DNA of 59,985 nucleotides from positions 1-59,985 of IMG/VR virus record IMGVR_UViG_3300024051_000138. One strand, 5' to 3'. The notes below the pieces were generated by a model. It was given only the letters and a program-made list of their open reading frames with translations, searched no databases and was not told the origin of the DNA. Below are positions 36,175-41,900 of this stretch, piece by piece (position 1 is the stretch's first letter; every line of letters begins with the position of its first letter). The translations under genes and the position numbers were made by a program. The stretch is from a virus (taxonomy: Duplodnaviria; Caudoviricetes).

Positions 36175-37542
36175 ATGGCACTCAACGATGACCCGTTGCG
36201 CGGCAATGCTGCCGCAGCGCTGGGACGCATCCCCTCGGCCAATCAAAACGCCCCAGGGTTCATGCCCGGCGTGCGTGCCGTGTACAACGAGTCCGGTAAA
36301 GCCATCGGTGACCTGGCTTCGCAGGGTCGGTATGGCGCGGCGGCCGGTGAAATTGCGCGCGCCGCACTTTCCTATGTGCCCGCTCTGACAGACGACGTGG
36401 TCGGTGGAGCGGTGCGCGCTGTCGGTCCGGGTGTCATGGATGCCGGGCGTCAACTCTTGGGCATCAATAGCCCTTCGCCAGCAGACTCGAAGCCATCTGC
36501 TGCAGCTCCGGCATCGGTTGCTGCAAACCCCGCCGACCAGCGCTTGGCCGCAGGCGCGCAGGCCACGCCCGCGGCTGTTTCAGCAGCGGATGCCATGGCT
36601 GGTCCGACCATGCCAGCCTCAGGCAACATCACCCGCGTAGGCAACAGTTACAGCGGCGGGAACGTGTCTGGCGATATCGCCATCAACGGCGCAGCACCTG
36701 GTGGCGGTACGGTTAGCTCGCAGAACATGCAGGCGGCCGACGCGCTGGCTGGGCGGCAGACGCCAGCCACAGCAGTTGCTAGCCCGGCACCGGCTCAGGG
36801 CGCCGCCGCTGCGATGATGGCCGCACCCGTGGTGCGCAACAGCACCAACGACTGGGCCGCACGCAAGGCGCTGGAGAACGCGCAGACCTCGGCCTCCAGC
36901 ATCACCAACCACCCCGAGTGGAGCGGCGGTGCAAGTACCGACTGGCGCGGCAGGGTAGTGGGCGGCCAAGCCGACCCGAACGGCAGTGTGGCGGCGTACC
37001 AAGCGGCGCTCAAGAACGACCTGGCGCTGCAGGGCGCGCAGCCGGGCGTGGACGTGGCTGCCATGAACGCGAATGCTGGTTTGCAGCGCGAAGGCATGCA
37101 GCAGCAGGGCGCCAACCAGCGCGCGAACCAGCAAGCAGGCCTGGAACAGCAGAGGATCAACCAGGCAGGCGTAACCCAGGGCTTCAAGAACCGGGCCGCA
37201 CTGCGGCTCGAAGGCCTGCAAGCCGCATACCAGGGCGCCAAGACGGATGCAGAGCGCGCTTCACTGGCCCGGCAGATTCGTGAAATCCAGGGGGTCGAGA
37301 AGCCCGACCAGTGGGCCCATTCGCCAGGAGGCCAAGTCATCGACCCCAAGACGCAACAACTCATCACGCAGCCTGGGGTGATCTACAACAAGGGGACTGG
37401 GCAGACATTAGGGGCGCAGCAGCCGGGGCAGGGTGGTGGCGCTGGAGAGGCTGGGCTTGCCCGAGCAATGGCTATCCGCGATGACAAGACCATGACGCGC
37501 GAGCAGAAGGTGGTGGCGCTGGAGAGGTTGGGCGTGTTTTAG
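36175..37542 (+). CDS. Internal virion / DNA ejection protein (putative)
   Basis: Ala/Gly/Gln-rich, Cys-free, 455 aa, between the adaptor and the giant protein. Confidence 0.65.
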   Translation: MALNDDPLRGNAAAALGRIPSANQNAPGFMPGVRAVYNESGKAIGDLASQGRYGAAAGEIARAALSYVPALTDDVVGGAVRAVGPGVMDAGRQLLGINSPSPADSKPSAAAPASVAANPADQRLAAGAQATPAAVSAADAMAGPTMPASGNITRVGNSYSGGNVSGDIAINGAAPGGGTVSSQNMQAADALAGRQTPATAVASPAPAQGAAAAMMAAPVVRNSTNDWAARKALENAQTSASSITNHPEWSGGASTDWRGRVVGGQADPNGSVAAYQAALKNDLALQGAQPGVDVAAMNANAGLQREGMQQQGANQRANQQAGLEQQRINQAGVTQGFKNRAALRLEGLQAAYQGAKTDAERASLARQIREIQGVEKPDQWAHSPGGQVIDPKTQQLITQPGVIYNKGTGQTLGAQQPGQGGGAGEAGLARAMAIRDDKTMTREQKVVALERLGVF

Positions 37543-37997
37543 TTGCCGGATGGACTTCTTTGGCACTCGGGGGCAGGGCGGTCAATCTTGCCGTCGAGGA
37601 AGTCGTCAATCTGCTTCTTGCAGTGGCTTGGGCGGTTATCAGGGGCTGCTTGAACTGCCCGCGGCACAGCGCCAGGCACCACCAAGCTCCTACCGCTCAT
37701 TGCCAATCCGATGGTGACCGCAGCCACCAGCACGAAGAACACTCCAAGTGCTGCAACCACCTTTGCCAGCATGGCCCAGGTTGGAGGGCCTGCGTAGGCC
37801 GTAGCTGCACGCCACACGCCCACGTTCACCAGGACGCAGTACGCCAGTGCAGCGACAACCAGAAGGATGGCGATGGCGCTCCCAGCAGGAGCAAGAGCGA
37901 GGGCGATGGACCAAGGGATGCCGCCGAGGAAGCCCCAGCCCCAGTAGGTCTTGGCCAGACCCGCCTTCCCTTCCCAGACTTGCTTGATGGCTTCCAT
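37539..37997 (-). CDS. Three-TM membrane protein (moron) whose C-terminal Cys-bracketed loop copies the ejection-protein N-terminus
   Basis: Three hydrophobic helices; AGGAGG RBS; TGCTACATT extended -10 (38017-38025); tail C-KKQIDDFLDGKIDRPAPE-C. Confidence 0.85.
   Translation of the reverse strand: MEAIKQVWEGKAGLAKTYWGWGFLGGIPWSIALALAPAGSAIAILLVVAALAYCVLVNVGVWRAATAYAGPPTWAMLAKVVAALGVFFVLVAAVTIGLAMSGRSLVVPGAVPRAVQAAPDNRPSHCKKQIDDFLDGKIDRPAPECQRSPSGN
37586..37613 (-). repeat. 28-bp inverted repeat, copy 1
   Basis: Reverse complement is CAGATTGACGACTTCCTCGACGGCAAGA, identical to 38968-38995. Confidence 0.97.
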
Positions 37998-38176
37998 GGT
38001 GATCCTCCTGAGACTGAATGTAGCAGGTGAAGTAGCACGCGCTTGAGTGTGCTTTTCCCGGGATCACTGGTTCGCAACAACCTCGGTAAAGTGGCACACT
38101 CACCTAAAATGCCCAGTTTTGAGCATGTTTCAGGCCCGATACCAATGAACCGTGAACCCGCTTGCTGAAGGAGCTG

Positions 38177-38909: not shown

Positions 38910-38912
38910 GCC

Positions 38913-38967
38913 CCCCCGTATAGGGTTGGCGCATTGAGAGCTGTTTCCCCAGAGTGGGGGGATGAGC
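38913..38967 (+). promoter_or_regulatory. Putative late promoter 2 (giant protein)
   Basis: CCCCCGTATAGGGTT-N22-CAGAGT-N6-ATG. Confidence 0.8.
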
Positions 38968-41900
38968 CAGATTGACGACTTCCTCGACGGCAAGACGAAT
39001 AGTCTGGCCCCCAAGCAGAACGCCATTGATGCGTTTCTTGATGGTGCAGAGCATGCACCTTCTAGTAGCACCGCCTCCGACCTCGCCAAGTCCTTGAAGG
39101 TAGGCGTCGAGCGACTGCCCGGCATGGCCACCGGCCTGGCCGACTTGCCCATAGCGCTCGCAACTGGAGCGCGTCCCTTCACCAAAGCCGCCGATGCCCT
39201 CGGCGAGGTGACCGGCTTCCAGCCCGGCAAATGGGCCGACGACACGAAATTCTCCGCTGGCTACGAGCAAGGCAAGAAGGCCGTGGATGCAGCCTGGGAA
39301 AGCGGCAGCGCGGGCGACATCGCCAAGGCGTACCTGCAGAACCCCGGCTACACAGCCAACCAGGTAGCGGAGTCGATCCCCAGCATGGTAGCGGGTGGCT
39401 TGGCCGGGCGTGCGCTGATGGGGGCGGGGCGGATTGCTGCGCCCCTGGCAGAGGCTGGCGGCGGCCCTGGTGCGCCGGGCCTGCTGGCACGCGCCGTGGG
39501 CGAAAAGATGGCCGCTCCTGTGGCGGGCGGTATTGGCGAAGGCGCCGTAACGGCTGGCCAGCAGATGCAGCAGTACCAGGGCGAGGACCAGCAGAAGAAC
39601 GCTGCCGCCGCGCTGGCTGCTGGTGTTGGCACGGGCGCGCTGGGTGTTGGTGCTGGCCGTGTTGCGAACAAGCTGGGGCTGGAAACAGCAGAGACGGCCA
39701 TCGCCAACGCCGGTCGCAAGGACGCGGTGCACGCCGCCGATGAAGTGCCCATGTCGGCCAAGCGCCGCATCTTGGGCGGCATGGTGTCCGAGGCCGTACT
39801 GCAGGAGCTGCCGCAGTCGGCCCAAGAGCAGATGTGGCAGAACTATGCCAATGGCAAGCCGTTGATGGAAGGCGTGCTTCGCCAGGGCCTAGAGGGTGCC
39901 GTGGCGGGCGGCGTGATGGGCGCTGGTGCGAACGTGAGCGATGGCGGCGCGGGCAAGCGCCGGGCGCAGGCGGATGCGCAGGCACGCCAGCGTGCAGAGG
40001 GTGCGGCCGCTGATGCGCAAGCCCCGGCAGCTCCACTGCAACTGGGCCACACGCCTGACCCGCTGATCGTCTTCCCCGACGGCACCACGGGCCGCCAGTC
40101 GGACGTGGATGCCTACTTGGCGAGCCTGCCCGAAGAACAACGTACCGAGGCCCGCGCGCGGCTGTACGGCTACGCTCCCCAGCAGGCGGACATTGGCACG
40201 TCGCCCGGCGCGGCCGACCCGAATGCGCCGCAACCGCCGGCCGCCAGCGCTCCGCAGGCGTTGGATGCCACGACTGCACCAGGGGCGGCGCAGCAGCTCG
40301 GCAATGGCGTGGACTTCACCCGCGACGTGGACACCTCGGGCCTGAGCCTGCAAGACCCGGCCGAGATGGAGCGCGCCCACGCCGCCACCATCGACTACCA
40401 GCCTGGAGACACCACGCCGCAGTGGGGCACATCGCAAGGTGCTGCACCCGCGCGCCAGGGGCTGGACATGCCTGCACCTGAGATCGACACCGGCAACCTG
40501 GGGCTGCAGGACACGCGCACACCGAGCCAGCGCATGGGCATCGACCCTGCTGCGGGCCCGCTGTCGAAGGCGGCGGCCACGGCGGTGGACTCTGGCGCCA
40601 GCGCGGCCGCAGCGCAGCCCATCGCCCGGGAGAACACCAATGCCCAAGCTGCCCAGGCGCCAGTGGCCAGCGCCGCCGAGCCCCTTTCCGCAGCCCGAGC
40701 CGCCGCCCTGGAAACCGCTGGGCCTGCATCCATTTCCACGACCACAGGAGTGACCAATGGCCCTCAAGCCGAGCAAACCCAGCCGCGCAGCGCGCCACCA
40801 GCGCAAGCAGGACGAGCGCAAGCCGCAGAACCCGCCACGGGTGGAGCCAGCACGCAAGCCGCTGCTGGCGCACCAGCGCCTGGGGCACTGAGCGGTGGCG
40901 CCCCGGCTCAGGACAATGGAGCGGCGCGCGCGGCAGCGCCAGCACCGCAGGGACAAGCGCAGGCTGCAGCGCCTCAAGTAGCCCGGCCCGATGGCTGGCG
41001 CACCAACATGCTCCGCGCTCGCCCTGTGGCGAAGGGCATGGGCATCGACACCAAGGGCAAGCGGCTGGCCCAGGTGGTGGCCGAGATCGACGCGGCAGAC
41101 ACGCGCGCTGCCGATGCTGCAGTGGCGGGCCAGAGCGATGATATGCCGCAGGCCCGGCCCTCCGAAACGCTGACACCGCAGGAGCAAGCCGCTTTTGACG
41201 AGCGCCACGGTATTGAGCCCGGTCGGCGTGCCGAGGTGGCGGCGAAGCTGGAGAAGAGCGCGCGGCAGAACGAGAAGACGCGGGCATCGACGCAGGCGCT
41301 GGGCATGCGCTCCCAGGAGCTGGCGGCAGACGAGGCGGCCAACGGCCCATACCCACAGCAGGCTTCCGTGCGCACTGCGGATGGACACTGGCAGCCAGCA
41401 GCACACCAGGGCGGCAGGGCCGCCAAGCCCATCGACGGGGCACCGCTGTTCTCTACGGCGGGCGCGGCGGCGCGCTGGGGTCAACTGGAGCGGCTCAAGA
41501 GCCGACCAGGATCGGATGCCCAGGCGCTGGCGCGGCAGCAGGAGGCGATTGCCGCCTTGGGTCAGGCCGCGGATCAAGTACCCGTCAAGCAGCCAGCCCG
41601 CACCAATGCTGGCGCTGCGGTGGCGGCGCGTGGGGCCAGTCAAGAACGCGCTGACCAACAGGCTGCCCACGTAGCGCCACAAGGCCGCGAGGTCTCGCGC
41701 GAAACCGGCAAGTACAAGCAGGGCTTGAGTGAGTTCCGCGCCAACCAGGTGCGCGACGAGCTCGCGCGCCAGAACCCGGGCGTGACGTACACCGTCGAGG
41801 AAGACTCCAGCCTGAAGAATGGCTATGCGGTGGTTGGCAGAAAGGCGGCCGCCGCGCGCTCGGATGGTTCGCAGGTGCGCAAGGGCGAGGATGGGGCCGA

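Follow-up and report, generated by a model that had tools for sequence, protein, structure and literature searches.

We analyzed a complete provirus record of a tailed phage (Duplodnaviria; Caudoviricetes; IMG/VR record IMGVR_UViG_3300024051_000138, 59,985 bases, hereafter the window) and found that a small gene on the minus strand encodes a three-transmembrane (3-TM) protein whose C-terminal tail copies the short peptide motif at the N-terminus of the phage's own giant virion protein. The same arrangement recurs in related phages, where the motif changes from phage to phage, the tail changes with it, and the tail is carried on either of two unrelated small proteins that we call carriers. We propose that the carriers are prophage-encoded decoys in the cell envelope that would block entry of phages of the same motif class, a form of superinfection exclusion to which we assign a probability of roughly 55% on the sequence evidence set out below. 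The elements of the window that bear on this proposal are the following, with lengths in amino acids (aa) and nucleotides (nt):

36175–37542, plus strand: p455, a 455-aa late-operon protein encoded between the adaptor and the giant protein (PHROG 11341, 2e-33)
37450–37539, plus strand: C-terminal module of p455, ending ..AMAIRDDKTMTREQKVVALERLGVF, the candidate docking site for the motif
37539–37997, minus strand: carrier gene, 152 aa by open reading frame (ORF) translation, a 3-TM protein with a tail
37586–37613, minus strand: motif copy in the carrier tail (carrier residues 129–137), one exact 28-nt arm
38962–46086, plus strand: giant, a large polyvalent virion protein of 2374 aa (LPD37 2.1e-50, LPD38 3.1e-38, PHROG 18222)
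38968–38995, plus strand: first motif copy in the giant (giant residues 3–11), the other exact 28-nt arm
39022–39045, plus strand: second motif copy in the giant, AIDAFLDG (giant residues 21–28)

The two exact arms are inverted copies of a single 28-nt word, CAGATTGACGACTTCCTCGACGGCAAGA, and the in-frame reading of both is QIDDFLDGK. Self-comparison of the window confirmed this repeat, first reported in a first-pass annotation of the same DNA, and showed it to be unique: a 27-mer of the repeat occurs at just these two sites in the whole record with up to three mismatches allowed, and 100 dinucleotide-preserving shuffles produced a mean of 0.00 matches. Beyond the exact word the repeat stretches raggedly to 48 nt at 81% identity (37566–37613 and 38968–39015). 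The reported second occurrence of the motif in the giant, as AIDAFLDG, is also present, and the internal twin repeat of the window giant is significant (0 of 500 shuffles reach its score). Five of the six residues shared by the two giant copies are encoded by a different synonymous codon, which argues for selection on the peptide. The 3.5-kb stretch is intact in three Logan assemblies, with 0 differences and no joints in contigs that possibly come from the source samples and are then not independent; in a fourth run, which belongs to a different study, only near-identical pieces of the cargo genes described below and short parts of p455 are present. A blastn search of 36175–39700 against GenBank phages returned no match.

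Twin motifs are a general property of these giant proteins. Homologues in 14 viral contigs each open with two copies of a short motif that varies by phage (NWSDFTPV/NWDDFKPV, NPFSDPHLG/NPFLDPDLG, DWERGTF/DWEKGAF, GNFFDQFDPSTA twice, PWENY/PWSNY and others). An internal repeat was significant in 16 of 17 giant N-termini tested, with locus L016 lacking it (loci carry L numbers and homologous proteins P numbers throughout). By eye, a distant giant homologue in L019 (about 4407–5000) has an N-terminal extension with a lytic-transglycosylase-like ..AYNAGPGAV.. replacing the twin motif. We scanned 17 loci in six frames, each with its own giant N-terminus as the query, the giant start excluded and no target preset, and in 10 of the 17 the best match fell 0–16 residues from the stop codon of a small opposite-strand ORF. 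Three of these ten ORFs encode 3-TM proteins and seven belong to an unrelated family of ~110 aa. In each of the two viral loci holding a 3-TM homologue along with a giant start, the tail copies the cognate motif: the L003 giant opens MAQDNEWWKQGAT..DWWAQGAT and its carrier tail reads ..EAEWWKKGSTEVR; the L004 giant opens MAQDKFGGTLV..DRYGGTLV and its carrier tail reads ..KTDRFGGVLVEPAK.

We quantified this matching in a pairing set of 54 loci (the window, L003, L004, L021, L026 and L042–L090), of which 23 had a complete tail and the giant start in the fetched DNA, the other 31 being left out for want of a complete tail or a giant start; the 23 yielded 20 non-identical pairs. The best ungapped 7-mer BLOSUM score between a tail and a giant N-terminus had a median of 34 for cognate partners and 15 for non-cognate partners, and the cognate motif is plain in 19 of the 20 pairs across about nine motif classes, with L069 (score 11) as the exception. 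When partners were permuted, 0 of 100,000 permutations reached the observed sum, for the 20 pairs, for 12 representatives and for 9 one-per-class pairs alike; the one-per-class permutation is the fair test and the 20-pair figure is inflated by relatedness. Within the one-per-class set of nine, every cognate pairing is the best in both its row and its column. That the tail motif tracks the N-terminus of the neighboring giant, which the first-pass annotation had made its decisive test, is thus borne out in 19 of 20 pairs. The giants of L021 (Paracidovorax citrulli) and L005 share 88.7% identity across residues 11–390, yet DWEKG motifs stand at the start of the L021 giant where L005 has PFxGxLD, and the 3-TM tail of L021, ..VDWEKGELS.., follows suit.

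What is shared between tail and giant is a peptide. A tail and its giant start have a longest common DNA word of 28 nt for the window and 16 nt for L079, against 6–11 nt in the remaining 18 of the 20 pairs, so that the likeness lies in peptide and not in DNA, which points to selection on the peptide. It had been proposed that the nucleotide identity in the window reflects recent copying, or ongoing conversion from the cognate gene that keeps the decoy matched. Of these two ideas, recent copying agrees with the 28 identical nucleotides of the window, where the start of the giant gene appears to have served very recently as the source of a renewed tail; ongoing conversion as the means of keeping decoys matched does not agree with the 6–11 nt shared by 18 of the 20 pairs.

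The motif is displayed on two kinds of carrier. Carriers of the 3-TM type with tails occur in the window, L003, L004, L021 and L026. The second family consists of ~110-aa proteins with a Sec-type signal peptide, four invariant cysteines and a conserved ..C.RLYD/E followed by the variable tail. A scan of viral contigs with this signal-peptide family recovered 49 loci, with the tail complete in 46 and the gene cut short in 3; the family has no Pfam, PHROGs or PADLOC match, and its AlphaFold2 (AF2) model, with a mean predicted local distance difference test score (pLDDT) of 49.9, was too poor for a fold search. Carriers in L042, L052 and L063 have near-identical bodies and different tails, each fitting its own giant. 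Among 3-TM proteins, the closest homologue of the window protein, P0001 (93% identical), ends ..DDEWWKKGSTPVN (..EWWKKGSTPVN), a tail type kept in L003, where it matches the EWWKQGAT of the L003 giant, and the L025 protein, 97% identical to that of the window, has no tail. The tail is therefore an exchangeable part. The five homologues of the window protein found first share the 3-TM core and not the tail, and QIDDFLDGK occurs in 0 of 5; the idea this had raised, that the tail is a mere junction scar, was dropped because the tails of these homologues match the giants of their own phages.

Tandem, remnant and hybrid carriers indicate that the tail moves between anchors, and suggest that it does so by repeated fusion and deletion. 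Loci L028 (10001–10680) and L031 (517–1200) hold a tail-less 3-TM gene followed by a signal-peptide carrier with a tail, in L021 (9813–10411) and L005 (5989–6222) one carrier stands next to what remains of the other, and the ORF in L023 (10001–10390) is a hybrid. Five loci (L046, L078, L086, L087 and L026) have tails with motifs of two classes, an arrangement that would fit defense against several phage types. The motifs in two-class tails stand in series, as in FDPSTAR followed by RPFTGTLDG or NFFGQFD followed by DLFDEFD, and the L026 tail (1322–1798) also has a cysteine-bracketed ..TEVTEFLGE.. like that of the window.

Signal-peptide carriers are also encoded by cultured phages. Among Hollowayvirus (F116-like) phages of Pseudomonas aeruginosa, 10 GenBank records contain a homologue, and in the 8 annotated records the carrier ORF is unannotated, with nothing at its position in 5, promoter or terminator features only in 2 and opposite-strand calls in 1. 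The carrier tail of phage LKA5, ..DEEKKPWEEYQNLQKDNQP, contains KKPWEEYQ and matches the LKA5 giant, LKA5_059.1, which opens MADTSKPWEEF..GGEKPWEEFGG and thus has KPWEEF twice; the p455-like protein LKA5_058 ends ..GYRFKGGNPADQNNWEKV. The LKA5 carrier (L091, about 8902–9297, with a provisional start codon) is found upstream of gene 058, and ~2.3 kb separate it from the 058/059.1 junction, and a signal-peptide ORF with four cysteines is also present in L092, L093 and L094. In Atpa001 the carrier ORF lies under small opposite-strand gene calls, and in JBD90 it is frameshifted just before the motif in a record marked unverified.

In the window, the carrier is composed of a 3-TM module (residues ~14–100), a low-confidence Pro/Ala-rich linker (104–122) and the motif tail (129–137), in which Cys126 and Cys145 flank QIDDFLDGK. 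An AF2 model of the protein (mean pLDDT 67, <50 over 104–122; used for helix positions only) places helices at residues 14–35, 41–66 and 72–100 and a short helix over the motif. The protein matched no Pfam, PHROG or PADLOC family and had no tblastn match among phages, and a homologue search returned 1329 representatives at E ≤ 0.001. In longer homologues, cytoplasmic kinase or DnaJ domains precede the 3-TM module and FGE-sulfatase or PG-binding domains follow it, an order that fits an N-in/C-out topology in 7 of 10 long homologues examined, with 3 of 10 lacking a Pfam hit and 0 contrary. The cellular fusions with a Ser/Thr kinase or DnaJ domain before the module and an FGE-sulfatase or PG-binding domain after it are P0088, P0154, P0111, P0151, P0046, P0055 and P0081, and the widespread module itself, without a Pfam match for the window's own protein, has the signature AGLAKTYW..WRAA..Y.G..WA.LAKV.

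These domain fusions, the three helices of the AF2 model and the signal peptide and four cysteines of the second carrier family all back the earlier prediction of a periplasmic tail, and both carriers should place the tail in the periplasm. The bracketing of the motif by two cysteines, which the first-pass annotation had read as a disulfide-stapled loop, holds for the window and does not generalize: among the tails read, L026 is the only other case. The carrier gene is antisense to the late operon, and its stop codon overlaps that of p455, so that no terminator follows it. Its translation signal is plain:

38004–38009, minus strand: AGGAGG ribosome-binding site, 6 nt before the carrier ATG, read from the sequence

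Of the expression signals claimed earlier, this strong Shine–Dalgarno sequence bears out a ribosome-binding site of the gene's own. For the extended -10 element the outcome is mixed: a TGnTACATT element, a putative promoter, is present near the carrier start at 38017–38025, yet a consensus promoter scan of 37300–39100 returned 0 promoters.

A third element that co-varies with the motif, after the giant start and the carrier tail, lies in p455. In nearly all loci the carrier is convergent with a p455 homologue and lies within ~150 bp of its 3′ end, and the last ~30 residues of p455 homologues make up a class-specific module whose type follows the motif class. In other loci of the IDxFL class p455 ends ..AISIRNDSSLSREQKVEALRKLGYS, the same module type as in the window; it ends ..ALPSGTLYTAPDGQQYRKN in the EWWK class, ..SGGKPVYEDAKGNRFIG in the PFxGxLD class, ..VGGKTAVWDGQKWVPQ in the DWExG class, ..FRGGDPSDQRNWERA in the GPWxxY class and ..AAEFDAKYGSGASRSILGR in the NFFDxF class. 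Variable cargo puts 1.4 to ~6.7 kb between the p455 C-terminus and the giant start, and the two still match, except in L069; the expected p455 C-terminus remains paired with the giant motif in L015, which is without a carrier, and in L089, where the carrier is cut short. The first-pass annotation had listed a partner ejection protein among the things the decoy might occupy, and this guess is strengthened, since the 36175 protein varies with motif class over its C-terminal ~30 aa. A PDB sequence search with p455 found no relative, and ten p455 C-terminal pieces gave nothing in Pfam at or above its cut-offs. Complex prediction with the C-terminal 80 aa of p455 and the N-terminal 70 aa of the giant, run without controls, scored 0.08, which is no answer, and we do not count it as evidence. 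A 28-nt direct repeat marks the p455 3′ end in the window (37432–37459 and 37509–37536, 93% identical, 77 nt apart); its second copy encodes the final ..VVALERLGV and its first, in another frame, GGGAGEAGL, and it looks like a scar of C-terminal module replacement.

The genomic setting is that of a temperate prophage, with a tyrosine integrase at 1–1230, an HTH-S24 repressor at 15769–16548 on the minus strand, and RecT and YqaJ recombination genes. Its late operon runs in the order TerL, portal, major head protein, SU10-type adaptor, p455, giant and Hc3-like gene. The neighboring features are:

35478–36164, plus strand: SU10-type adaptor of a podovirus-like late operon (Pfam SU10_adaptor 6.5e-26)
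38162–38862, plus strand: cargo between carrier and giant, comprising an 88-aa ORF (38162–38428) and a 148-aa protease (38416–38862)
38881–38905, plus strand: terminator-like hairpin and T-run after the cargo, 57 nt before the giant ATG
46355–47500: head-closure Hc3-like gene, by PHROG comparison

The giant is likely an injected or ejection protein. It has the features by which large polyvalent proteins are recognized, namely LPD domains, very large size and TerL, portal and major head protein genes upstream, and a HELMH metallopeptidase motif is visible in it. Packaging and injection have been predicted for proteins of this kind (Iyer et al. 2017, PMC5512222). According to a preprint, gp47 of phage phi24B, an LPD38 protein, was detected in virions by proteomics and proposed as an ejection protein.

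The segment between carrier and giant appears to be part of an accessory-gene hot spot at the p455/giant junction. In the window it holds a retropepsin-like aspartyl protease (the 148-aa ORF; Asp_protease_2 3.5e-07, with a DTGAS motif) whose start is overlapped by the 88-aa ORF, and the cargo has a weak PADLOC match to PDC-M08B (6e-4); the two genes may form a mobile accessory or defense unit. Other loci have other cargo at the same position, including YafO, DUF4411, HTH-M78 and antirepressor genes: the cargo of L003 (3108–5954) and L004 (1022–2817) comprises a YafO-like toxin, a P22 antirepressor N-domain protein, and DUF4411 with HTH-M78. Morons, the independently transcribed accessory genes of prophage late regions, have a promoter and a terminator of their own and vary in presence between related phages; of these traits the carrier shows the variable presence, along with variable neighboring cargo, and the promoter scan returned none.

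Taken together, the observations suggest the following mechanism. The carrier, expressed from the prophage, would hold a flexible C-terminal tail in the periplasm, in the window by means of the 3-TM module, and the end of this tail would present a copy of the short linear motif that is found twice at the N-terminus of the giant. As an incoming phage of the same motif class released its internal proteins into the periplasm, the decoy would fill the site to which the giant N-terminus must dock, most likely the class-specific C-terminal module of p455 or, alternatively, a host envelope factor. The trans-envelope conduit would then not be assembled, and DNA entry would be blocked. Motif, decoy tail and p455 C-terminus would together make up one specificity class, with at least 9–11 classes swapped as modules. 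A defense acting where ejected proteins assemble fits the predicted periplasmic display, the interchangeable anchors, the antisense gene, its frequent absence or decay and the two-class tails. The earlier proposal of mimicry-based exclusion is thus partly supported, in its mimicked motif that co-varies with its model in 19 of 20 pairs and in its predicted periplasmic tail, and loses nucleotide identity and the cysteine bracket as general features.

A more specific version of this scheme is a peptide handshake, in which the twin motif of the giant docks to the ~30-residue module of p455, prophages display copies of the motif, and a code of ~8 residues sorts the phages into exclusion groups, with at least 9–11 classes, some two-class decoys, swaps by recombination and renewal from the cognate gene. 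We put it forward tentatively and rate it somewhat short of even odds.

Several observations weigh against the exclusion model or its p455-directed form. The concordance of tail class and p455 C-terminal class, which regular expressions written post hoc show for 38 of 42 loci (the other 4 are unclassified and none disagrees), is partly simple linkage, because the two lie less than ~150 bp apart in most loci; in cassette-free relatives such as L015, the p455 C-terminus and the giant start are likewise adjacent. The motif classes were themselves defined post hoc, after the data had been seen. L069, the only mismatched pair of the 20, combines an IDxFL tail and p455 C-terminus with a giant of the PFxGxLD and GPWxxY classes, and if the p455 C-terminus must dock the giant N-terminus, the L069 phage should be defective unless docking is looser. 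(The L069 giant start, at about 1009 on the minus strand, holds four motifs of two classes: LQPFSGKLD, GPWTNY, GPWSQY and LKPFDGELD.) Six-frame scanning found no carrier in L007, in L015 or in the distant-giant loci L016–L018 and L020, and the giant of Stx phage phi24B lacks a twin motif, with no copy in the 37 kb examined of its 57.7-kb record. Many 3-TM homologues are tail-less or have other domains, so the module has other uses. Finally, matching the phage's own giant is not obviously needed for defense against other phages; we conjecture that decoys match self since sibling virions are the commonest attackers.

The L069 mismatch also bears on an alternative in which the decoy is the same and its target is a host envelope protein instead of the p455 C-terminus. 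The twin motifs would recruit a periplasmic or inner-membrane factor, in the manner of colicin TolB and TonB boxes and of filamentous-phage pIII, and the decoy would saturate it. We consider this unlikely. In its favor, the motifs are short, acidic and aromatic, bivalent and located in apparently disordered N-termini; giants with near-identical bodies carry different motifs, as expected for exchangeable receptor-binding epitopes; and the motifs of the L069 giant do not fit its p455 C-terminus. There is also an established precedent for competitive exclusion, in that pIII of a resident filamentous phage saturates TolA (passages of PMC7070036), and the authors of the P22 SieA study also weigh occlusion of a host inner-membrane component (PMC10883804). 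A host factor would not by itself account for a p455 C-terminus that changes with motif class in every classifiable locus but L069, although linkage could also produce this, and each of at least nine very different classes would call for a host target of its own, in a single phage group whose hosts are related.

A role for the carrier in the phage's own cycle, such as tethering capsids at the membrane, controlling release of the giant or timing lysis, is less likely again. The gene lies inside the late structural operon region, its tail matches the phage's own giant and not foreign ones in 19 of 20 pairs, and the tandem of a tail-less 3-TM gene and a signal-peptide carrier in L028 and L031 hints at a two-part device. 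Heads, however, assemble in the cytoplasm, whereas both carriers are predicted to show the motif in the periplasm, and the carrier gene is antisense to the late operon. The carrier is also not essential, because it is absent from many relatives and a remnant in L005, L089 and JBD90 (the unverified record), and two-class tails make little sense for a self-directed role.

The structure of the junction raises a further possibility, that the tail is a functionless by-product of recombination, formed where a moron cassette entered the p455/giant junction and the carrier frame runs into an inverted duplicate of the 5′ end of the giant gene. In the window several features speak for such an origin: there is 28-nt DNA identity at the cassette boundary, the carrier and p455 stop codons overlap, the closest homologues have other tails or none, the frame-shifted direct repeat at the p455 3′ end shows rearrangement there, and the prophage encodes RecT and the YqaJ exonuclease. 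The comparison across loci makes it very improbable, since 19 of 20 pairs match in peptide with DNA identity of just 6–11 nt in 18 of the pairs and 16 nt in L079, and since the same mimicry appears in an unrelated carrier family and in LKA5 with its carrier away from the junction; on these sequence comparisons we regard the by-product explanation as already refuted in general. Least probable of all, to the point of being hardly credible, is an invertible segment whose 1.35-kb flip would act as a phase-variable switch by fusing the 3-TM module in frame to the giant body, which the shared reading frame of the two arms would allow, given that no joint or inverted form occurs in contigs of three runs (weak evidence, as contigs hide rare forms) and that other loci have no DNA-level repeat to recombine (6–11 nt in 18 of 20 pairs). 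Switches of the Hin/Gin type flip through a site-specific invertase, at which no search was aimed here, and occur in both orientations in a population.

If the exclusion model is right, one could tell from sequence, class against class, which related temperate phages exclude which, a readability that is rare among entry-level defenses, whose targets are mostly unknown. Under the handshake version the result would be a predictable exclusion system analogous to immunity groups but acting at entry. It would also define a concrete contact, between the p455 C-terminus and the giant N-terminus, in a phage group with uncharacterized DNA-delivery machinery, and it would add an overlooked gene to cultured P. 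aeruginosa F116-like phages, in which the idea is testable at once. More generally, grafting a short copy of the target's partner onto a generic periplasmic anchor would be a general route by which an accessory gene acquires specificity.

Elements of the proposed mechanism have counterparts in known systems. Colicins use mimicry to recruit periplasmic machinery: their TolB and TonB boxes are short linear epitopes placed in disordered N-termini, and the motifs of the giants may resemble them. HK97 gp15 is a moron-encoded inner-membrane exclusion protein. Of the traits that mark entry-exclusion proteins, membrane or periplasmic location is predicted for the carriers, and specificity for an ejection protein is seen in them as sequence co-variation only.

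The closest functional parallel is P22 SieA, a prophage-encoded protein of the inner membrane that stops DNA injection by related podoviruses only, with sensitivity mapping to gp16 and gp20, ejection proteins that build a conduit across the periplasm (passages of PMC10883804). Like SieA, the carriers are prophage-encoded, would sit at the inner membrane by prediction and would act on the DNA-entry step; unlike them, SieA is not reported in those passages to mimic an ejection protein. The two SieA sequence types compared there did not differ in target specificity (PMC10883804), whereas carrier tails are of many classes, each following the proteins of its own phage. We saw no relation between SieA and the carriers, which match no Pfam, PHROG or PADLOC family; no direct comparison with SieA was made. 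According to its abstract, the T4 membrane protein Imm binds the incoming channel-forming tape measure protein and stops secondary infection (bioRxiv 10.64898/2026.03.06.709160); Imm differs in belonging to a myovirus and in targeting a tape measure protein, and the abstract names no copied motif or modular specificity classes. In filamentous phages, pIII made by the resident phage uses the same binding surface as incoming pIII and saturates the periplasmic co-receptor TolA (PMC7070036, in the passages on this point). There the structural protein itself competes, whereas the carriers are separate small genes that present an ~8-residue copy on an unrelated anchor.

The passages on large polyvalent proteins (Iyer et al. 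2017, PMC5512222) and on phi24B mention neither an N-terminal twin motif nor a matching envelope protein. The literature searched held no description of a copied-motif decoy; paper supplements lay outside the search, and the domain files of PMC5512222 might cover the N-termini. What is new in relation to these systems is a small gene dedicated to carrying the copied peptide and nothing more, with many specificity classes, each of which follows proteins of the phage itself.

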